DNA of 64,000 bases from sequence record ON528734; one strand, written 5' to 3'. This document shows positions 5,236 through 23,657 of this stretch, piece by piece. The notes under the pieces are model-generated. The model was not told the origin of the DNA and searched no databases. It saw only the letters and a list, made by a program, of their open reading frames with translations. Each line of letters starts with the position of its first letter. Position 1 is the first letter of the stretch. This DNA comes from Shigella phage ESh24. Both the position numbers and the translations under genes were made by a program.

Positions 5236-6663
5236 GTGGTAGAAATTATTCTTTCTCATCTTATATTTGATCAAGCTTATTTTTCAAAAGTTTGGCCATA
5301 TATGGATTCAGAATATTTTGAAAGTGGTCCAGCTAAAAATACATTCAAATTAATTAAATCTCATGTTAATGAGTATCATAGCGTTCCATCTATCAATGCG
5401 TTAAATGTTGCATTAGAAAATAGTTCATTTACTGAAACAGAATATTCTGGTGTAAAAACACTTATTTCAAAACTGGCTGATTCTCCAGAAGACCACAGTT
5501 GGTTAGTAAAAGAAACAGAAAAATATGTTCAGCAAAGGGCGATGTTTAATGCTACGTCTAAAATAATCGAAATTCAAACTAATGCTGAGCTTCCTCCGGA
5601 AAAACGAAATAAGAAAATGCCGGATGTTGGTGCTATTCCTGACATCATGCGGCAAGCATTATCTATTTCATTTGATAGTTACGTTGGTCATGATTGGATG
5701 GATGACTATGAAGCACGTTGGCTATCTTATATGAATAAAGCTCGTAAAGTTCCATTTAAACTCAGAATTCTAAACAAAATTACTAAAGGCGGAGCTGAAA
5801 CAGGAACACTGAACGTTTTAATGGCTGGCGTTAACGTTGGTAAATCATTAGGACTTTGTTCATTAGCAGCAGATTATTTGCAGCTTGGTCATAACGTTCT
5901 TTATATCTCCATGGAAATGGCAGAAGAAGTCTGCGCTAAACGTATTGATGCTAATATGCTCGATGTTTCTCTTGACGATATTGATGATGGACATATTTCT
6001 TACGCTGAGTATAAAGGAAAAATGGAAAAATGGCGTGAGAAATCTACTCTCGGTCGTTTAATCGTTAAACAGTATCCTACTGGTGGAGCAGACGCTAATA
6101 CATTCAGGTCTCTCTTGAACGAATTGAAGCTCAAAAAGAATTTTGTTCCAACAATCATTATTGTCGACTATCTAGGTATTTGTAAATCTTGCCGCATTAG
6201 AGTTTATTCAGAAAATAGTTACACAACTGTTAAAGCTATTGCAGAGGAATTGCGTGCTCTGGCTGTTGAAACCGAAACTGTTCTTTGGACTGCAGCACAG
6301 GTCGGTAAACAAGCTTGGGACTCTTCTGATGTTAACATGAGCGATATTGCAGAATCTGCCGGTCTTCCAGCAACGGCTGATTTTATGCTTGCGGTCATTG
6401 AAACCGAGGAGCTAGCAGCTGCTGAACAACAACTCATTAAGCAAATCAAATCACGATATGGTGATAAGAATAAGTGGAATAAGTTTTTGATGGGTGTTCA
6501 AAAAGGAAATCAAAAATGGGTAGAAATTGAACAAGATTCTACTCCAAGTGAAGTGAGTGAGGTAGCAGGTTCACAACAGATTCAGGCTGAACAGAATCGC
6601 TATCAAAGAAACGAATCGACTCGAGCTCAGTTAGATGCTTTGGCAAATGAATTAAAATTTTAA
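5236..6663 (+). CDS. 41: Replicative DNA helicase gp41 (DnaB-like)
   Basis: 475 aa, GTG start after AAGGAG; Walker A GVNVGKS; matches T4 gp41 length. Confidence 0.95.
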   Translation: MVEIILSHLIFDQAYFSKVWPYMDSEYFESGPAKNTFKLIKSHVNEYHSVPSINALNVALENSSFTETEYSGVKTLISKLADSPEDHSWLVKETEKYVQQRAMFNATSKIIEIQTNAELPPEKRNKKMPDVGAIPDIMRQALSISFDSYVGHDWMDDYEARWLSYMNKARKVPFKLRILNKITKGGAETGTLNVLMAGVNVGKSLGLCSLAADYLQLGHNVLYISMEMAEEVCAKRIDANMLDVSLDDIDDGHISYAEYKGKMEKWREKSTLGRLIVKQYPTGGADANTFRSLLNELKLKKNFVPTIIIVDYLGICKSCRIRVYSENSYTTVKAIAEELRALAVETETVLWTAAQVGKQAWDSSDVNMSDIAESAGLPATADFMLAVIETEELAAAEQQLIKQIKSRYGDKNKWNKFLMGVQKGNQKWVEIEQDSTPSEVSEVAGSQQIQAEQNRYQRNESTRAQLDALANELKF

Positions 6664-7223: not shown

Positions 7224-7517
7224 ATGAAAAAATTTATCTTTGCCACAATTTTTGCTTTAGCTTCTTGTGCTGCTCAGCCTGCTATGGCAGGTTATGATAA
7301 AGATTTGTGCGAATGGTCTATGACTGCTGATCAGACTGAGGTTGAAACTCAAATTGAAGCAGATATTATGAATATCGTTGAGCGCGATCGCCCTGAAATG
7401 AAAGCTGAAGTGCAAAAACAGCTTAAGTCTGGTGGTGTAATGCAGTATAATTATGTTCTGTATTGCGATAAAAACTTTAATAATAAAAATATCATCGCTG
7501 AAGTGGTAGGTGAGTAA
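7224..7517 (+). CDS. sp: Spackle (Sp), periplasmic inhibitor of gp5 lysozyme
   Basis: 97 aa with N-terminal signal peptide MKKFIFATIFALASCAAQPAMA; matches T4 sp (61.3). Confidence 0.8.
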   Translation: MKKFIFATIFALASCAAQPAMAGYDKDLCEWSMTADQTEVETQIEADIMNIVERDRPEMKAEVQKQLKSGGVMQYNYVLYCDKNFNNKNIIAEVVGE

Positions 7518-7530
7518 TTAGAGGTTAAGT

Positions 7531-7887
7531 ATGTATAGTTCTGAATTTTCATATTTAAAAATGGAAAAAATTTCATACGATTTTATAGATGAAAAGGTTT
7601 ATTATAGTTTCCATGAACCACGTTTTAATAGTGAGGTTGGGTTTATTGTAGTAAAAGACAATTTTATTTTAAAAATATATTCAGCATTAAAGGATTTTCA
7701 TTACGAAAATATTAACCTAAAATTTAATAAAGAAAACGTTCGTAATTGCGCAGTAACAATTACAGGAAATAAAGGTACATGTGTTATGCTATCTGATGAA
7801 ATTAATGATTTGCTAAATGATGCAGAAAATATTACTGCGCCATCTATTGATGACCAAATTTTTAATGCTTTTATGAATAGAGGTTAA
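7531..7887 (+). CDS. Hypothetical protein (61.2 position)
   Basis: 118-aa ORF. Confidence 0.55.
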   Translation: MYSSEFSYLKMEKISYDFIDEKVYYSFHEPRFNSEVGFIVVKDNFILKIYSALKDFHYENINLKFNKENVRNCAVTITGNKGTCVMLSDEINDLLNDAENITAPSIDDQIFNAFMNRG

Positions 7888-16211: not shown

Positions 16212-17527
16212 CATTTGATGATTTGACCGAAGGCCAGAAAAATGCCTTTAACATTGTTATGAGGGCTATTAAAGAAAAGAAACATCATGTAACTATTAAT
16301 GGACCTGCTGGTACTGGTAAGACTACTCTTACTAAGTTCATCATTGAAGCTTTAATATCTACGGGTGAAACTGGTATTATTTTAGCAGCTCCTACTCATG
16401 CAGCTAAAAAGATTCTTTCAAAACTGTCGGGGAAAGAAGCGAGTACTATTCACAGTATTCTTAAAATTAACCCAGTAACATATGAAGAAAATGTTCTTTT
16501 TGAACAGAAGGAAGTGCCAGATTTAGCTAAATGTAGGGTATTAATCTGCGACGAAGTGTCAATGTATGATAGAAAGCTATTTAAAATTCTGCTTTCAACT
16601 ATCCCGCCGTGGTGTACTATAATTGGAATAGGTGATAATAAGCAAATTAGACCTGTTGACCCAGGAGAAAACACTGCTTATATCAGTCCATTCTTTACAC
16701 ACAAAGATTTTTATCAGTGTGAACTTACTGAAGTTAAACGCAGTAATGCTCCTATTATTGATGTAGCTACTGATGTTCGCAACGGTAAGTGGATTTATGA
16801 TAAAGTTGTTGACGGTCATGGAGTACGTGGATTTACTGGTGATACCGCTTTACGTGATTTTATGGTAAATTATTTTTCAATCGTCAAATCACTAGATGAT
16901 TTGTTTGAAAATCGCGTAATGGCATTTACGAATAAATCTGTTGATAAGTTAAATAGCATTATTCGTAAAAAGATTTTTGAAACTGATAAAGATTTTATTG
17001 TCGGTGAAATTATTGTAATGCAGGAACCATTAATTAAAACATATAAAATTGATGGAAAGCCTGTATCAGAAATTATTTTTAATAACGGACAATTAGTTCG
17101 TATTATAGAAGCAGAGTATACATCAACATTTGTTAAAGCTCGTGGTGTTCCTGGAGAATATCTAATTCGTCATTGGGATTTAACAGTAGAAACTTACGGC
17201 GATGATGAATATTATCGTGAAAAGATTAAAATAATTTCATCTGATGAAGAGCTGTATAAGTTTAACTTATTTTTAGGTAAAACAGCAGAAACTTATAAGA
17301 ACTGGAATAAAGGCGGAAAAGCTCCGTGGAGTGATTTTTGGGATGCTAAATCACAGTTCAGTAAAGTGAAAGCACTTCCTGCATCAACATTCCATAAAGC
17401 GCAGGGCATGTCTGTAGACCGTGCTTTCATTTATACGCCTTGTATTCATTATGCAGATGCTGAATTGGCTCAACAACTTCTTTATGTTGGTGTTACCCGT
17501 GGTCGTTATGATGTGTTTTATGTATGA
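16208..17527 (+). CDS. dda: Dda DNA helicase (SF1B)
   Basis: 439 aa; Walker A GPAGTGKT; near-identical to recalled T4 Dda. Confidence 0.95.
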   Translation: MTFDDLTEGQKNAFNIVMRAIKEKKHHVTINGPAGTGKTTLTKFIIEALISTGETGIILAAPTHAAKKILSKLSGKEASTIHSILKINPVTYEENVLFEQKEVPDLAKCRVLICDEVSMYDRKLFKILLSTIPPWCTIIGIGDNKQIRPVDPGENTAYISPFFTHKDFYQCELTEVKRSNAPIIDVATDVRNGKWIYDKVVDGHGVRGFTGDTALRDFMVNYFSIVKSLDDLFENRVMAFTNKSVDKLNSIIRKKIFETDKDFIVGEIIVMQEPLIKTYKIDGKPVSEIIFNNGQLVRIIEAEYTSTFVKARGVPGEYLIRHWDLTVETYGDDEYYREKIKIISSDEELYKFNLFLGKTAETYKNWNKGGKAPWSDFWDAKSQFSKVKALPASTFHKAQGMSVDRAFIYTPCIHYADAELAQQLLYVGVTRGRYDVFYV

Positions 17528-17548
17528 TTAAATTTGAGGAAGCTATTC

Positions 17549-17794
17549 GTGGAAATAACTAAAGACCAGTTTTATCTACTTCAAGATAAAGTGAGCGAAA
17601 TATATGAAATAGCTTATAGTAAAAATTATAGAAATGTAAAAATTGAATCAGGCAAGTTAATGCTTCAATTGGAAGAAATTGAACGAGATTTGATTGCGTT
17701 AGAATTCTTTTGTGGTGAAGTGAAAACTGTTACAATCAGTGATTACATTTTAGGTGAAATTAGCCATCTTTATAAGGTGATTATTAATGTTTGA
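17549..17794 (+). CDS. Hypothetical protein (about 81 aa; GTG start after GAGGAA)
   Basis: ORF between dda and dexA. Confidence 0.45.
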   Translation: MEITKDQFYLLQDKVSEIYEIAYSKNYRNVKIESGKLMLQLEEIERDLIALEFFCGEVKTVTISDYILGEISHLYKVIINV

Positions 17795-18470
17795 TTTTAT
17801 TATAGATTTTGAAACAATGGGAAGTGGTGAAAAAGCAGCTGTTATTGATTTGGCTGTTATTGCCTTTGACCCTAATCCAGAGGTAGTTGAAACATTTGAT
17901 GAATTAGTTTCGCGCGGCATTAAAATCAAATTTGATTTAAAAAGCCAAAAAGGACATCGTCTTTTTACTAAAAGCACTATTGAATGGTGGAAAAATCAGT
18001 CTCCTGAAGCTCGAAAAAATATTGCACAATCAGATGAAGATGTAAGCACTATCGATGGTATTGTAAAATTTAATGATTACATCAATGCACATAACATCGA
18101 TCCCTGGAAATCTCAGGGTTGGTGCCGTGGAATGTCGTTTGATTTTCCAATTTTAGTCGATCTCATTCGCGATATTCAACGTCTTAACGGCGTTTCCGAG
18201 AATGAGCTTGATACGTTTAAGTTAGAACCTTGTAAATTCTGGAATCAGCGTGATATTCGTACCAGAATTGAAGCACTTCTCCTTGTTCGTGATATGACCA
18301 CGTGTCCTCTTCCAAAGGGAACTTTAGATGGATTCGTTGCGCATAATTCTATTCATGACTGTGCGAAAGACATTCTGATGATGAAGTATGCTTTGCGATA
18401 TGCTATGGGTCTTGAAGATGCTCCATCAGAGGAAGAGTGCGATCCTCTGTCTCTTCCAACAAAACGATAA
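17787..18470 (+). CDS. dexA: Exonuclease A (DexA), DnaQ-like 3'-5' exonuclease
   Basis: 227 aa; DEDDh motifs (IIDFETMG, HNSIHDCAKD). Confidence 0.9.
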   Translation: MFDFIIDFETMGSGEKAAVIDLAVIAFDPNPEVVETFDELVSRGIKIKFDLKSQKGHRLFTKSTIEWWKNQSPEARKNIAQSDEDVSTIDGIVKFNDYINAHNIDPWKSQGWCRGMSFDFPILVDLIRDIQRLNGVSENELDTFKLEPCKFWNQRDIRTRIEALLLVRDMTTCPLPKGTLDGFVAHNSIHDCAKDILMMKYALRYAMGLEDAPSEEECDPLSLPTKR

Positions 18471-18476
18471 AAAGTT

Positions 18477-18508
18477 GTTTACTTCCTCGGTTAGTTGTGG
18501 TATTATAA
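18477..18508 (+). promoter_or_regulatory. Early promoter
   Basis: GTTTAC 18477-18482, TATTAT 18501-18506. Confidence 0.55.
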
Positions 18509-18533
18509 CACCATAGCTACTGAGGATAATAAA

Positions 18534-19031
18534 ATGAAAATTTATCGTGTTGAATCATCGTTTAGTATTCTTGATTATGAAGATGCTATAACAATACGTC
18601 GAAATCTTTGTGTTCAAATAACGCCGTACAGGAGTATAATAGATTCATGGAGCGAAGAGTGGCTATTACACGTAGGTTATGACAGACCTAATTTTATGCA
18701 TCATAGCGATAATAAAAGAATTCCTTTACCACACGAAGATAAACTATTAGTTAAAAACGCTAATATAGTAATTAATACTAAGTTCAAGAAAGATTATGTT
18801 GGAGTAGAATATCATATTCCAGGATGGTTTATAGCTCTTTATCATTTTGCTTTCGCTAGTGAATATGATATGATGAGATGGTTCACACGAGAAGAGAGGG
18901 AAGAATTATCTTCTAAAGGATTTTATCTTGCTGTATACGAAGTTCCTGAAGATGAAGTTATCATTGGTGGGCACCAAGTAATGTTCCGCAAATCGCATGC
19001 TGAACTTGTAGATTTTATTGAAATGAGATAA
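18534..19031 (+). CDS. Hypothetical protein (motB-region; 165 aa from ATG 18534)
   Basis: ORF with GAGGA RBS after the early promoter. Confidence 0.55.
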   Translation: MKIYRVESSFSILDYEDAITIRRNLCVQITPYRSIIDSWSEEWLLHVGYDRPNFMHHSDNKRIPLPHEDKLLVKNANIVINTKFKKDYVGVEYHIPGWFIALYHFAFASEYDMMRWFTREEREELSSKGFYLAVYEVPEDEVIIGGHQVMFRKSHAELVDFIEMR

Positions 19032-19033
19032 TT

Positions 19034-19579
19034 ATGAAATTTAATTATAATCCTGAATGCATACCAAATCCGGTAGCTAAACTGATTGATTTTGATGTTG
19101 TAAGCACTTATGTATGCCCTGTTAAACCACTGGAAATTAAGGAACCTACTATGACTACCGCTATTGAAATCGGCAAAACCTACAAACTGGTTGAACCTAA
19201 AATTAAAACTAATGCCTTGATTTCTGGTCATAAAACTCTGACTGATGTTTTTGGCGAAGGCGAATTTATTGTTGAAGAATTTGCCAAAAGTGAGTGGTTT
19301 AACAAATCTTACGTCATCCACGGTCGCCGGTTAGATAATAACAAAATAAAGAAAAACCTGGTTTATGAAGATGAGTTCATCCTGTTCCAAGAAGTTGAAG
19401 AACAAGACCCTACAGACCTGTTGTGTGCTGCTGTGTCTATCCGTCGTCCTTTTGATAATCCTATCTGTGGTTGGGTAACAGACCAGTGGATTGAAGATGG
19501 TGTTGAGCTTCTGAACGTTGTCCATGCAGGAGATTTTAGTGTAGTACCTCGTAGTGCGGTGGTAGCTATTTTGAATTAA
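19034..19579 (+). CDS. Hypothetical protein (181 aa), paralog of 19657..20145
   Basis: C-terminal CGWVTDQWIEDGVELLNVV shared with the next ORF. Confidence 0.65.
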   Translation: MKFNYNPECIPNPVAKLIDFDVVSTYVCPVKPLEIKEPTMTTAIEIGKTYKLVEPKIKTNALISGHKTLTDVFGEGEFIVEEFAKSEWFNKSYVIHGRRLDNNKIKKNLVYEDEFILFQEVEEQDPTDLLCAAVSIRRPFDNPICGWVTDQWIEDGVELLNVVHAGDFSVVPRSAVVAILN

Positions 19580-19581
19580 TA

Positions 19582-19611
19582 GTTTACAAACTCTTGGGAC
19601 CAGAGTATAAT
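19582..19611 (+). promoter_or_regulatory. Early promoter
   Basis: GTTTAC 19582-19587, TATAAT 19606-19611. Confidence 0.6.
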
Positions 19612-19656
19612 GGTCCTGTGGAGTATAAAAATCTTTTTAACAAGTGAGAGATAACT

Positions 19657-20145
19657 ATGATTATTAATATTGGTGAAATTGCTCGTGTATCTGATAAATC
19701 CCGTTCTAAAGCAGCAGGAAAATTGGTCGAAATTGTAAGCATTCAGCTTAAACACGGCGTTAAAGATGAAGATTCTGAAGTAAAAGTGCGTATCATTCCT
19801 AAAGATGGAAAGTCTAAACCTCAGTTTGGTTATGTTCGTGCGAAATTTCTTGAATCTGCGTTTTTGAAAGCTGTTCCCGCTAAAGGAATTGAAACGATTG
19901 ATACTTCGCATGTAGGTGTAGACTTTAAGTGGAAACTCGGTCAAGCTATTAAGTTCATTGCTCCTTGTGAATTTAAATTTATCAAAGATGATGGAAAGGC
20001 TGCTTATACTCGCGCTATGTGTGGATACATTACCGATCAATGGGTAGAAGATGGCGTTAAGTTGTACAACGTGGTATTTTTAGGAACATACAAAGTCATT
20101 CCTGAAAGTTGGATTAAACACTATAGCAATGCTCTCTATGCATAA
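19657..20145 (+). CDS. Hypothetical protein (162 aa; possibly MotB by size), paralog of 19034..19579
   Basis: C-terminal CGYITDQWVEDGVKLYNVV; 162 aa equals T4 MotB length but identity is unverified. Confidence 0.6.
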   Translation: MIINIGEIARVSDKSRSKAAGKLVEIVSIQLKHGVKDEDSEVKVRIIPKDGKSKPQFGYVRAKFLESAFLKAVPAKGIETIDTSHVGVDFKWKLGQAIKFIAPCEFKFIKDDGKAAYTRAMCGYITDQWVEDGVKLYNVVFLGTYKVIPESWIKHYSNALYA

Positions 20146-20181
20146 AGTTTAAAATTTTTTCATAAAACTATATACATCAGT

Positions 20182-20224
20182 AGTTGATTATGGTACTATA
20201 TCAATATCAACTACTGATATAGAA
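20182..20224 (+). promoter_or_regulatory. Early promoter embedded in a 13-bp perfect inverted repeat
   Basis: ATCAGTAGTTGAT-tatggtactatatcaat-ATCAACTACTGAT. Confidence 0.5.
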
Positions 20225-20317
20225 AACAACTTGGAGAATAAAATGGATAATTCGTTAAAGGTGCTGATACTCTTCTGAAACGCATCGCTCCAATGTTCAA
20301 TTAATGAGGAAATTGTA

Positions 20318-20533
20318 ATGAAACGTAAAATTGTTCAGAACTGCACTAATGACGAATTTGAAGATGTATTATTTGATCCAGATTTGGTAGTGGTTCAAAA
20401 GGAACACACTATTAAGTTTACTCACTTGACTTCTGTTTATGTGTATGAGAAAGTCGGTGATAAACAGCCAATTTACGGTGTATTTCGTGAAATTACTGAA
20501 GACGGCACAACTTACTGGAAGGAAATTTATTAA
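20318..20533 (+). CDS. Hypothetical protein (71 aa; cef position)
   Basis: ORF with GAGGAAA RBS. Confidence 0.5.
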
Positions 20534-20952
20534 TGGCTATTAAATTTGAAGTTAATAAATGGTATCAATTTAAAAATAAACAAGCTCAAGAAAATTTTAT
20601 TAAAGACCATACTGATAACGGAATCTATGCACGACGTTTAGGTATGGAGCCTTTTAAAATTTTAGATGCTGATTATCTTGGGCGTCCTACTAAAATTATG
20701 ACATCTATAGGTGTACTCAAACGTTGTGCCGGCGGTGATATCCTTGACGAAAACTTTATCTGGCTCTCTACTAACGAAGCTGGGTTCTTTGATGAAGTTG
20801 AAAATCCATATCAGGCTGCTGAAGAACAAGAGCAGGAAGAGCAAGAACAAATAGAAGATTTCATAGAATTCCCGGTAATGAAAGTTACTATTGAAAATAA
20901 TGAACAAGCATGGTCCTTGTATCAGATGTTGAAAGCTCACTTTAAGGAATAA
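20533..20952 (+). CDS. Hypothetical protein (139 aa; goF/comC-alpha position)
   Basis: ATGG overlap with previous stop; acidic [10 protein letters not shown] stretch. Confidence 0.55.
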
Positions 20953-20954
20953 TT

Positions 20955-21131
20955 ATGCCAATGTATGATTATAAATGCCAATCCGAAGATTGCGGGCATG
21001 AATATGAAAAAATTAAAAAGATTTCTGAACGAGAAAATGATGTTTGCCCTAAATGTCATCGTTTGTCTACTCGTCGGCCTTCTGCTCCTAAGCATGTGAA
21101 TGGTGGTTTTTACGACTTACTTAAAGGGTGA
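20955..21131 (+). CDS. FmdB-like zinc-ribbon protein (58 aa)
   Basis: MPMYDYKCQSEDCGHEYE...CPKCH: two CxxC pairs in the FmdB-family arrangement. Confidence 0.55.
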   Translation: MPMYDYKCQSEDCGHEYEKIKKISERENDVCPKCHRLSTRRPSAPKHVNGGFYDLLKG

Positions 21132-21133
21132 TT

Positions 21134-21505
21134 ATGTTTAAAATCGGTAAGAAATATCGTATTCGCGAAGGCGAAGAAAAGAAATATCTAATGTCTGCTA
21201 TTTATAGGAATGGTTCTATTAATGCTGTAATATCTACAAGCGAATTTATCGTTGAAGATATGAAAGGTAATAATGTTACAATGATTAGTACAGCATCTGG
21301 AAATGATGGAAAAATTCTTCACAGTTTTCAGAGTAATGTTCTAATTTATGATGAAGAATTTGACTTCTTCGAAGAAGTTCCTGAAGATTTTGATTTTGAA
21401 TGCACCATCACTATGAAATCTGGTGACCCTCTTTCTTTTACAGTTAAAGATGAAAGAAGCCGTTTAAGAATTATTAGTCTCCTTCAAGCCATTAAATTTG
21501 AGTGA
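21134..21505 (+). CDS. Hypothetical protein (about 124 aa)
   Basis: ORF with TGATTATG overlap. Confidence 0.55.
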   Translation: MFKIGKKYRIREGEEKKYLMSAIYRNGSINAVISTSEFIVEDMKGNNVTMISTASGNDGKILHSFQSNVLIYDEEFDFFEEVPEDFDFECTITMKSGDPLSFTVKDERSRLRIISLLQAIKFE

Positions 21506-21509
21506 AATT

Positions 21510-21770
21510 ATGAAATATGTTAATCGTTCTATCGCGGCATTAGTATTAGCAGTATCTTTAGTAGGATGTACTGATGCTGATAATGCAACCAAAGTTTTGT
21601 CTTCAAGTGGTTTTACTAATATTGAAATCACTGGATACAATTGGTTCGGTTGTTCTGAAAATGATTTCCAACATACTGGATTTCGTGCTATTGGACCTAC
21701 TGGGCAGAAAGTAGAAGGAACAGTATGTTCTGGTCTGTTCTTTAAGGATTCAACTATTCGTTTTAAATAA
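21510..21770 (+). CDS. Putative lipoprotein (86 aa)
   Basis: Signal peptide with lipobox LVGC. Confidence 0.55.
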   Translation: MKYVNRSIAALVLAVSLVGCTDADNATKVLSSSGFTNIEITGYNWFGCSENDFQHTGFRAIGPTGQKVEGTVCSGLFFKDSTIRFK

Positions 21771-21790
21771 AAGGCCTTCGGGCCTTTAGC
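21771..21790 (+). terminator. Stem-loop / weak terminator
   Basis: AAGGCCTTCGGGCCTT hairpin. Confidence 0.5.
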
Positions 21791-21812
21791 TTTATGATTA
21801 CCGGAGTATAAT
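21787..21812 (+). promoter_or_regulatory. Putative MotA-dependent middle promoter for gene 39
   Basis: MotA-box-like TAGCTTTA with TATAAT 12 bp downstream. Confidence 0.4.
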
Positions 21813-21839
21813 ATTCCCGAAACCAAACGAGGATAAGTG

Positions 21840-23657
21840 ATGATTAAGAATGAAATTAAAATTCTGAGCGATATTGAACATATCAAAAAGCGTAGTGGCA
21901 TGTATATTGGCTCTTCTGCTAATGAAATGCATGAGCGCTTTCTGTTTGGTAAATGGGAAAGTGTTCAGTATGTACCTGGTCTTGTTAAGCTTATTGATGA
22001 AATTATCGATAACTCAGTAGATGAAGGTATTCGTACTAAGTTTAAATTCGCGAATAAAATTAATGTTACCATTAAAAATAATCAGGTAACAGTTGAAGAT
22101 AACGGTCGCGGTATTCCACAAGCGATGGTTAAAACACCTACCGGTGAAGAAATTCCTGGTCCAGTTGCTGCTTGGACTATTCCAAAAGCAGGTGGTAACT
22201 TTGGCGATGATAAAGAACGTGTCACCGGTGGTATGAATGGTGTTGGTTCTAGTTTGACAAACATTTTTTCTGTGATGTTTGTCGGTGAAACTGGCGATGG
22301 TCAAAATAATATTGTAGTTCGTTGTTCAAATGGCATGGAAAATAAATCATGGGAAGATATTCCTGGAAAATGGAAAGGAACTCGTGTTACTTTCATTCCA
22401 GATTTTATGTCATTTGAAACTAATGAGCTGTCCCAAGTTTATCTTGACATTACACTGGATCGTCTCCAGACGCTTGCTGTAGTTTATCCTGATATTCAAT
22501 TTACCTTTAATGGTAAAAAGGTTCAGGGCAATTTTAAGAAATATGCACGACAGTATGATGAGCATGCTATTGTTCAAGAACAAGAAAATTGTTCTATTGC
22601 GGTTGGTCGTTCACCGGATGGATTTCGTCAATTAACTTACGTGAATAACATTCATACTAAGAATGGTGGCCATCACATTGATTGTGTTATGGATGATATT
22701 TGTGAAGACCTTATTCCACAAATCAAACGTAAGTTCAAAATTGATGTCACTAAAGCACGTGTCAAAGAATGTTTGACTATCGTTATGTTTGTCCGTGATA
22801 TGAAAAACATGCGATTTGACTCTCAAACTAAAGAACGACTTACTTCTCCATTTGGCGAAATTCGTAGTCATATTCAACTTGATGCTAAAAAGATTTCACG
22901 TGCTATTTTAAATAATGAAGCAATTTTAATGCCAATTATTGAAGCTGCTTTGGCTCGTAAATTGGCGGCAGAAAAAGCAGCAGAAACTAAAGCAGCTAAA
23001 AAGGCTTCTAAAGCTAAAGTTCATAAACATATTAAAGCGAATCTTTGTGGTAAAGATGCTGACACTACATTGTTCTTAACCGAGGGTGATTCAGCTATCG
23101 GATATCTTATTGATGTTCGCGATAAAGAACTTCATGGCGGTTATCCATTGCGTGGTAAAGTTCTTAATAGCTGGGGTATGTCATATGCCGATATGCTTAA
23201 AAACAAAGAACTATTTGATATTTGCGCAATCACTGGATTGGTTCTTGGTGAAAAAGCTGAAAACTTGAATTATCATAATATTGCTATTATGACCGATGCT
23301 GACCATGATGGTCTAGGAAGCATTTATCCTTCTCTTCTTGGATTTTTTAGTAATTGGCCAGAACTGTTTGAGCAAGGAAGAATTCGCTTTGTCAAAACTC
23401 CTGTAATCATCGCTCAGGTCGGTAAAAAACAAGAATGGTTTTATACAGTCGCTGAATATGAGAGTGCCAAAGATGCTCTACCTAAACATAGCATCCGTTA
23501 TATTAAGGGACTTGGCTCTTTGGAAAAATCTGAATATCGTGAGATGATTCAGAACCCAGTATATGATGTTGTTAAACTTCCTGAGAACTGGAAAGAGCTT
23601 TTTGAAATGCTCATGGGAGATAATGCTGACCTTCGTAAAGAATGGATGAGCCAGTAG
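21840..23657 (+). CDS. 39: DNA topoisomerase II large subunit gp39, contiguous 605-aa form (gene 39/60 fusion as in T2/T6)
   Basis: 605 aa from ATG 21840; GHKL ATPase N-terminus; C-terminal part corresponds to what T4 encodes separately as gp60. Confidence 0.93.
   Translation: MIKNEIKILSDIEHIKKRSGMYIGSSANEMHERFLFGKWESVQYVPGLVKLIDEIIDNSVDEGIRTKFKFANKINVTIKNNQVTVEDNGRGIPQAMVKTPTGEEIPGPVAAWTIPKAGGNFGDDKERVTGGMNGVGSSLTNIFSVMFVGETGDGQNNIVVRCSNGMENKSWEDIPGKWKGTRVTFIPDFMSFETNELSQVYLDITLDRLQTLAVVYPDIQFTFNGKKVQGNFKKYARQYDEHAIVQEQENCSIAVGRSPDGFRQLTYVNNIHTKNGGHHIDCVMDDICEDLIPQIKRKFKIDVTKARVKECLTIVMFVRDMKNMRFDSQTKERLTSPFGEIRSHIQLDAKKISRAILNNEAILMPIIEAALARKLAAEKAAETKAAKKASKAKVHKHIKANLCGKDADTTLFLTEGDSAIGYLIDVRDKELHGGYPLRGKVLNSWGMSYADMLKNKELFDICAITGLVLGEKAENLNYHNIAIMTDADHDGLGSIYPSLLGFFSNWPELFEQGRIRFVKTPVIIAQVGKKQEWFYTVAEYESAKDALPKHSIRYIKGLGSLEKSEYREMIQNPVYDVVKLPENWKELFEMLMGDNADLRKEWMSQ

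Follow-up and report, generated by a model that had tools for sequence, protein, structure and literature searches.

The two tandem reading frames at 19034–19579 (+, 181 aa; ORF1) and 19657–20145 (+, 162 aa; ORF2) are almost certainly early genes of a T-even phage, namely a motB.1-group gene followed by motB. Both frames are found in the ORF list as the first-pass annotation had described them. Their products have a homologous C-terminal domain (CTD) in common and carry different N-terminal domains (NTDs). The shared CTD is real but ordinary and already published, and since the motB/motB.1-group pair of T-even phages is already known, the finding is not new. We propose that the pair arose when exchangeable N-terminal cassettes were combined with a single C-terminal module. 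An acidic LSm-like barrel in ORF1, or a basic KOW-like barrel in MotB, would have been joined to a common small β-barrel. Taken as a whole, this account of the pair, with its shared CTD, its interchangeable N-terminal cassettes, its expression and its function, is very probably the best explanation.

The window, a stretch of 64,000 nucleotides from Shigella phage ESh24 (ON528734), is a T-even (Tequatrovirus) early region. Hundreds of T4-like phages of Escherichia and Shigella match it with 94–96% identity between positions 18400 and 21600, and the genes follow the T4 order: dda, dexA, a motB.2-like gene, ORF1, ORF2, cef, goF, a 39.2-like gene and an unsplit gene 39. The motB.2-like gene (18534–19031, +) was assigned from the ORF list, a match to phrog_1106 (8.7e-57) and the T4 gene order. 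It starts with the ATG at 18534, the mechanical ORF beginning earlier at TTG 18495, and over 18651–19006 it shares 90.8% DNA identity with motB.2 of T4T (blastn). Three antisense ORFs overlap the pair (18923–19321, 19331–19525 and 19576–20040, all on the minus strand). The PHROG search returned no match for any of them, and we take them as spurious. A scan of positions 17500–22000 against Rfam at E ≤ 1 found no RNA family.

The first-pass annotation had suggested from size that one of the two proteins may be MotB, and this protein is ORF2. It is equal in length to T4 MotB (162 aa) and 96% identical to it, and the Pfam motB family PF17613 covers residues 1–162 of 162 with E = 2.8e-110 and 365.8 bits (cut-off 25). 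As in T4, the gene lies before cef and behind the same early promoter. The protein also has the architecture of MotB, consisting of a basic KOW-like NTD, a flexible linker and a conserved CTD. Residues 1–68 (19657–19860, +) form the basic KOW/SH3-like N-terminal barrel. MotB is basic (pI 9.30) because this domain carries a net charge of +5 (family mean +4.2); V11, S12, S15, S17 and G21 are invariant in it. Residues 93–156 (19933–20124, +) form the C-terminal small β-barrel, as delimited by hhalign and AlphaFold2 (AF2). An AF2 model computed on the family alignment (pLDDT 80.7) contains two barrels. The N-terminal barrel has five strands and extends over residues 8–67, the linker at 70–83 is disordered, and the strands of the C-terminal barrel lie at 97–109, 115–131, 134–141, 144–149 and 153–156 with pLDDT values of 85–94. 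A sequence search of the PDB with the MotB profile did not find a solved relative. Work by others on T4 MotB (Patterson-West et al. 2018, PMC6070864; Son et al. 2021, PMC7827196) has shown that this protein binds DNA tightly and non-specifically, that H-NS and StpA co-purify with it, that H-NS footprints are altered, that it is toxic on expression in E. coli, and that burst size is doubled.

An early promoter had also been predicted between the two genes, and as a sequence feature this element is there. The site TTTACA-17-TATAAT at 19583–19611 (+) scores 11 of 12 matches, outranks every other promoter-like site in the region, is kept in T4, and is the predicted early promoter of motB. Another T4-type early promoter-like site, TTTACT-17-TATTAT with an upstream TG, lies at 18478–18506 (+) between dexA and the motB.2-like gene. 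Both sites fit the T4/PST early-promoter consensus TTTACW-N17-TAYWAT (PMC4122927), the match at 18478–18506 being exact. This pattern occurs 16 times in the window (15 times on the plus strand), compared with an expectation of 0.46. Judging from the sequence, the site at 18478–18506 probably serves the motB.2-like gene together with ORF1. The ATG of ORF1 follows the stop codon of the motB.2-like gene by 2 nt, so ORF1 is probably cotranscribed and translationally coupled. Transcription of ORF1 would then start at the early promoter in front of the motB.2-like gene, to which ORF1 would be translationally coupled, and motB would have an early promoter of its own. A scan for terminators between ORF1 and ORF2 found none.

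RNA folding places a 7-bp hairpin (GGGACCA/TGGTCCT) at 19596–19617 (+), with the −10 hexamer of the motB promoter in its loop. The segment 19577–19660 folds with −23.7 kcal/mol (z = −3.71), and 0 of 200 shuffled sequences are as stable. In the PeSL cassettes of T4-type phages (Arbiol et al. 2010, PMC2839356; Comeau et al. 2014, PMC4122927) a promoter is likewise combined with a stable hairpin, and positions 19583–19617 resemble these cassettes also in bordering a region in which a cassette has been swapped. In contrast to PeSL cassettes, the hairpin at 19596–19617 is not placed ahead of the promoter but overlaps its −10 hexamer, and the cassette boundaries at 19007 and 19389 are located inside coding sequence, away from 19583–19617.

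ORF1 occupies the position of T4 motB.1, directly upstream of motB. Its assignment to the motB.1 group is based on the ORF list, phrog_2333, PF17613 and this position. The match to phrog_2333 is full-length (3.6e-88). The family comprises more than 120 clusters of proteins of about 180 aa from T-even phages with 73–94% identity, all pre-annotated with PF17613. In GenBank its members are named either MotB-domain protein ("transcription regulator MotB domain-containing protein") or transcriptional regulator. Close orthologues are ECML134_009 (P0004, 93% identity) and UFV13 g011 (P0077, 86% identity). Both appear in the list of MotB homologues that Son et al. 2021 (Viruses 13:84, PMC7827196) give as their Table S4; these authors described a common CTD, differing NTDs and a possible duplication for MotB and MotB.1. 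[quoted passage not shown] The orthologues of ORF1 likely belong to their Category 4. The relationship between MotB and MotB.1 is captured by Pfam PF17613 and by PHROGs as well, and the LSm-like NTD of MotB.1, GoF and Frd.2 has been described by Kim et al. 2025 (PMC12152347). Since ORF1 stands in the motB.1 position, and since its orthologues and the shared CTD have been published, the two proteins are simply known proteins of the T4 motB region. The expectation that the partner of MotB is an undescribed paralog has to be given up.

The comparison with T4T indicates how ORF1 relates to motB.1. By blastn the window aligned to T4T only at 18651–19006 and at 19390–20239, the latter segment reaching from the end of motB.1 through motB with 92.7% DNA identity. 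The N-terminal cassette in between (19007–19389, +) has no DNA homology to T4T, and its flanks are 91–93% identical. Because this cassette has no T4T counterpart and its flanks align, we regard ORF1 as a motB.1 allele with an orthologous CTD and a swapped N-terminal cassette. On the protein level, the CTD of ORF1 is near-identical to that of T4 MotB.1 (...DPTDLLC..V.IRRPF.NPI.GWVTDQWIEDGVELLNVVHAG..SVVPRSAVVAILN). It is nearer to MotB.1 than to MotB, with 60% identity over ORF1 residues 103–153 to reference T4 MotB.1 and 47% to the CTD of MotB. By contrast, residues 1–102 of ORF1 have no BLASTP similarity to residues 1–63 of MotB.1, and ORF1 has an additional disordered tail of 39–43 residues. 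Within the motB.1 group the lengths are 181 aa for ORF1, 143 aa for resequenced T4 and 119 aa for the reference annotation. With T4 MotB, ORF1 has only the C-terminal barrel in common; the basic KOW-like NTD is absent and the protein is acidic (pI 4.87, net charge −9) instead of basic. PF17613 matches ORF1 at residues 140–176 only, corresponding to profile positions 117–153 of 162. As this match is confined to the CTD and BLASTP finds no similarity in the NTD, ORF1 is a MotB-CTD-containing protein and not an orthologue of MotB.

Along the ORF1 protein, residues 1–43 (19034–19162, +) are predicted from AF2 pLDDT values to be a disordered N-terminal tail, with pLDDT below 50 for residues 1–41. 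This tail contains the conserved linker motif LIDFDVVSTYVCPVKPL at residues 19–33. Variants of 245–250 aa contain a 68-aa domain which, according to the alignment, is inserted after ORF1 residue 13, and the tail of ORF1 looks like a remnant of this longer form. The internal Met40, at 19151, is invariant, is preceded by AAGGA and is a candidate alternative start; one ORF1 orthologue in BFVD is annotated at 141 aa. Residues 44–123 (19163–19402, +) form an LSm/SH3-like barrel of the GoF/MotB.1/Frd.2 type, as identified by phrog_622, BLASTP and AF2. The AF2 model of this domain has five strands and a helix (60–73), with strands up to residue 121, at pLDDT values of 71–78. Residues 129–179 (19418–19570, +) form the shared C-terminal small β-barrel, with strands at 133–136, 144–154, 157–164, 167–172 and 176–180. 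The model of the whole protein, also computed on the family alignment, is only moderately confident (pLDDT 66.7).

The C-terminal motif that had drawn attention to the pair is present as CGWVTDQWIEDGVELLNVV in ORF1 and as CGYITDQWVEDGVKLYNVV in ORF2. BLASTP aligns ORF1 137–174 with ORF2 114–151 (18/38 identical, 47%; 27/38 positive) with E = 7e-13, which removes the concern that the motif may be statistically insignificant. Alignment of the two family alignments with hhalign yields a probability of 98.7% and E = 2.5e-16 over about 50 columns. It pairs ORF1 129–179 with MotB 93–156 and places a 12-residue insertion in MotB. The two CTDs are homologous, with a longer β1–β2 hairpin in MotB, and, as hhalign also indicates, the last four strands of both modeled barrels are in register, shifted by 23 residues throughout. 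ORF1 clears the gathering score of PF17613 through the shared segment alone (34.6 bits vs 25). Searches against PHROGs are reciprocal: ORF1 finds the MotB-like phrog_1671 at 1.1e-16 and MotB finds phrog_2333, the ORF1 family, at 2.4e-12. The idea that two unrelated ORFs resemble each other by chance or composition, to which the short span of the exact BLASTP match (38 residues only) might lend some color, is ruled out for practical purposes by the BLASTP and hhalign statistics together with the Pfam score, the reciprocal PHROG matches and the register of the predicted strands. In fold class, the predicted structures resemble the small β-barrels of the Tudor/chromo/PWWP/KOW type (for example the 53BP1 tandem Tudor domain, 3lgf, and the Spt5 KOW domain, 5ohq). 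This resemblance is one of fold class only, with 10–23% identity, and the PDB profile search found no sequence-level kin among these barrels.

Outside the CTD the two proteins are indeed unlike, as the first-pass annotation had stated; what it read as divergence is better described as the presence of different NTDs, basic and KOW-like in MotB, acidic and LSm/SH3-like in ORF1. Residues 45–123 of ORF1 are 29% identical to residues 5–86 of a 125-aa GoF-type protein encoded at 21128–21505 (BLASTP E = 1e-4). The NTD of ORF1 also matches phrog_622 at 2.8e-4, which is not a KOW family and which includes both this 125-aa protein and the GoF of the window. The reverse match, from phrog_2333 to the 125-aa protein, has a value of 0.002. 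Direct BLASTP of ORF1 against the GoF of the window detected no similarity, and the link between ORF1 and GoF runs only through the 125-aa protein and phrog_622. As predicted, ORF1 conforms to the description of the LSm-like proteins, in which a bent five-stranded antiparallel β-sheet at the N terminus leads through a linker into a CTD that varies. It shares with the GoF/MotB.1/Frd.2 fold family the predicted five-strand barrel (44–123) that precedes linker and CTD, and differs in that its model has a helix between β1 and β2.

The family is narrow: a search of 1.84 billion representative proteins recovered just 17 clusters at 50% identity. No member was found outside T-even phages: 16 of the 16 retrieved clusters (of 17) carry T-even-type domains. 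Several architectures are built around the same CTD. It occurs with one or two LSm-like barrels, with an extra 68-aa N-terminal domain in front of an LSm-like barrel (245–250 aa), with the T4-type NTD (144 aa), and, as a CTD of the MotB.1 type, with a KOW-like NTD of the MotB type (126–199 aa); there is also one 43-aa deletion fusion. In other architectures, domains are repeatedly joined by a linker with the motif D-x-D-V-x-S-M-Y-x-x-P. Because of these varied architectures, the pattern of the linker motif and the DNA cassette boundaries, we favor domain shuffling over divergence of whole genes.

The competing scenario, in which motB was duplicated in tandem as a whole gene and the copies diverged everywhere except in the C-terminal motif to produce a new and undescribed paralog, is improbable in our estimation. 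Adjacent genes on the same strand with homologous CTDs are what such a duplication would leave behind, and to this extent the duplication and diversification proposed in the first-pass annotation is consistent with the data. Both NTDs are moreover small SH3-like barrels, which leaves room for the whole genes to share a very old ancestor. Yet the NTD of ORF1 shows sequence homology to GoF-type proteins and none to the KOW domain of MotB, it corresponds to a discrete DNA cassette that is non-homologous to T4, the CTD occurs in relatives behind either KOW or LSm-like NTDs, and the paralog has already been described. It is the divergence of whole genes, therefore, that is disfavored in comparison with the shuffling of domains or cassettes.

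The T4 reference sequence of motB.1 deserves a separate remark. In AF158101.6 / NC_000866.4 the gene reads ...GACCAATGGATTGGAAGATGG... near coordinate 7,300 of NC_000866, and at the same site the window, ESCO58, T4T and a resequenced T4 read ...ATTGAAGATGG.... An 84-nt query over this site is matched with 100% identity in the two reference records only. The 13 next-best records (11 T4 isolates including T4T, as well as RB55 and RB59) show a one-base gap. In T4T and MT984581, the two of these 13 records that were inspected, motB.1 encodes 143 aa and ends with ...GGWVTDQWIEDGVELLNVVHAGEYSVVPRSAVVAILN. Measured against this 143-aa product, the 119-aa "13.8 kDa" MotB.1 of the reference thus breaks off halfway through a strand of the shared barrel and is missing the three final strands. 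Probably, the extra G is either a sequencing error in the reference or peculiar to a single stock. The insertion goes unmentioned both by Son et al. 2021 (PMC7827196) and by Kim et al. 2025 (PMC12152347). For MotB.1 the latter authors quote 13.8 kDa and NC_000866.4 coordinates, and in Table S4 of the former T4 MotB.1 is the weakest homologue (56 bits, 48% coverage), its relatives scoring about 105–120 bits. As the gene product is 143 aa long in both inspected records, a truncated protein may underlie published work on MotB.1. Kim et al. 2025 (PMC12152347) observed no burst or latent-period phenotype for T4 ΔmotB.1 and no effect of MotB.1 in an RNA reporter assay; these null results rest on the 119-aa reference annotation. 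Future studies of MotB.1 should use the 143-aa form, since the apparent one-base error in the reference truncates the shared module.

How the shared barrel may work is a question to which we can give a tentative answer. The shared segment is the best conserved part of both families. In the ORF1 family the mean column identity is 0.98 for residues 144–175 and 0.81–0.88 elsewhere, and in the MotB family it is 0.84 for the shared segment and 0.54–0.64 elsewhere. Members of the ORF1 family carry a mean net charge of −4.4 on the CTD and those of the MotB family −1.4, compared with +4.2 on the NTD of MotB, and the CTD is acidic (net −3 to −6) in every member of the ORF1 family that we examined. On the basis of charge and conservation, we read the shared barrel as a module for partners or oligomerization and not as a surface for non-specific DNA binding. 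The DNA affinity of MotB would then reside mainly in the basic N-terminal barrel, and the highly conserved, acidic-to-neutral C-terminal barrel would serve as a common module for partner recognition or oligomerization. ORF1 would bring its LSm-like domain, possibly a binder of RNA or protein, to a partner that it has in common with MotB. That the barrel binds partners or oligomerizes, and that ORF1 is not a second MotB, is a proposal drawn from sequence and charge to which we would give somewhat less than even chances. Among the LSm-like GoF/MotB.1/Frd.2 proteins, no wild-type member is proven to bind RNA (Kim et al. 2025, PMC12152347), and binding of RNA or an effect on RNA stability has been seen in this family only with the GoF(D25Y) mutant.

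A different and rather doubtful reading is that the CTD is a nucleic-acid-binding OB fold of the cold-shock type, and that ORF1 is a second DNA or RNA binder that acts on the host nucleoid in the manner of MotB. HHpred has placed MotB 69–149 in an eIF5A-type OB fold (Son et al. 2021, PMC7827196), MotB does bind DNA, the ORF1 family is annotated as "transcriptional regulator", and nucleic-acid binding is common among small barrels of this type. The charges are difficult to reconcile with this reading: ORF1 is acidic overall, its family is uniformly acidic in the CTD, and in the MotB family the CTD is on average slightly negative whereas the positive charge is found in the NTD. Whole-chain searches lend no specific support to a cold-shock OB fold for the CTD, a fold with which they nevertheless remain compatible.

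The partner-binding reading can be taken one step further, to a more specific version that we consider unlikely as it stands. The CTD could be a Tudor/SH3-like partner-recognition or heterodimerization module instead of a DNA-binding OB fold, and T-even phages would use it to bring interchangeable N-terminal barrels, KOW-like for binding DNA or LSm-like for binding RNA or protein, to one host target, for example the H-NS/StpA nucleoprotein, with MotB and the MotB.1-group protein acting together. If this were true, the missing phenotype of T4 MotB.1 would in part reflect the frameshifted 119-aa annotation, from which most of the module is removed.

Because the literature already covers the common CTD, the contrast between the NTDs and the LSm-like fold family, the pair carries little weight as a discovery. 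In the annotation of these phages, it is probably misleading to call members of the acidic ORF1 family "transcriptional regulator". The early "non-essential" region, finally, provides a clear case of domain-cassette shuffling around one invariant module, and this example is useful for annotating the accessory genes of T-even phages.

The motB.1 gene of the T4 reference genome (NC_000866.4, T4 7291–7650, minus strand; positions 5292–5651 of the extracted locus) contains one additional G at the site equivalent to window 19490–19500, reading ATTGGAAGATGG instead of ATTGAAGATGG. This extra base shifts the reading frame, yields a 119-aa product and thereby conceals the end of the MotB-type C-terminal barrel (CTD). 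All 13 next-best records (11 T4 isolates including T4T, as well as RB55 and RB59) show a one-base gap against the reference gene, and in both records inspected for length, T4T and MT984581, motB.1 encodes 143 residues. Published work describes MotB.1 as a 13.8 kDa protein and quotes the reference coordinates (Kim et al. 2025, PMC12152347). P0242, a 43-aa protein from the representative search, is a deletion fusion: residues 1–17 of MotB.2 (MKIYRVESSFSILDYED) are joined directly to the final 26 residues of the MotB.1 CTD. This protein recalls the 29-aa "Category 3" peptide of RB69 described by Son et al. (2021, PMC7827196).

ORF1, the motB.1-group gene of the window, begins with an N-terminal tail (residues 1–43, window 19034–19162, plus strand) that is predicted to be disordered. 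Despite this prediction, the tail retains the linker motif D-x-D-V-x-S-M-Y-x-x-P-x-K-P-L, which repeatedly occupies an interdomain position in other MotB.1-group architectures. Some relatives, 245–250 aa long (P0024, P0059 and P0083, residues 1–82), contain an additional domain of approximately 68 residues between the equivalents of ORF1 residues 13 and 14. Met40 is invariant, is preceded by AAGGA, and is the annotated start of ORF1-type proteins in some records, giving a product of 141 aa.

Together with ORF1, GoF (139 aa, window 20533–20952) and a 125-aa ORF (21128–21505), both of which match the protein family phrog_622, bring the number of proteins with a GoF-type N-terminal barrel to three within 2.5 kb. 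In T4, the 65-aa 39.1 is the only gene between 39.2 and 39. A further difference concerns topoisomerase II: in T4 the large-subunit gene is divided between 39 and 60, an arrangement that includes mobA and the 50-nt bypass, whereas gene 39 of ESh24 is a single 606-aa ORF (21837–23657) and thus has the unsplit arrangement.

The T4-type early promoter consensus TTTACW-N17-TAYWAT has 16 exact matches in the window (for example at 1192, 7167, 9318, 11647, 23658, 27917, 28423, 31568 and 48213), where 0.46 would be expected. Fifteen of the matches lie on the plus strand, and many of the 16 include the extended -10 element TGGTA(C/T)TAT. The 172-nt spacer between motB and cef contains a long imperfect hairpin (20173–20221; 23-nt arms, 83% complementarity, 3-nt loop) that is conserved in T4. 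Because this hairpin encloses the -10-like element TGGTACTAT, with TATACA 17 nt upstream, it is a candidate for a further early promoter that lies within a stem-loop.
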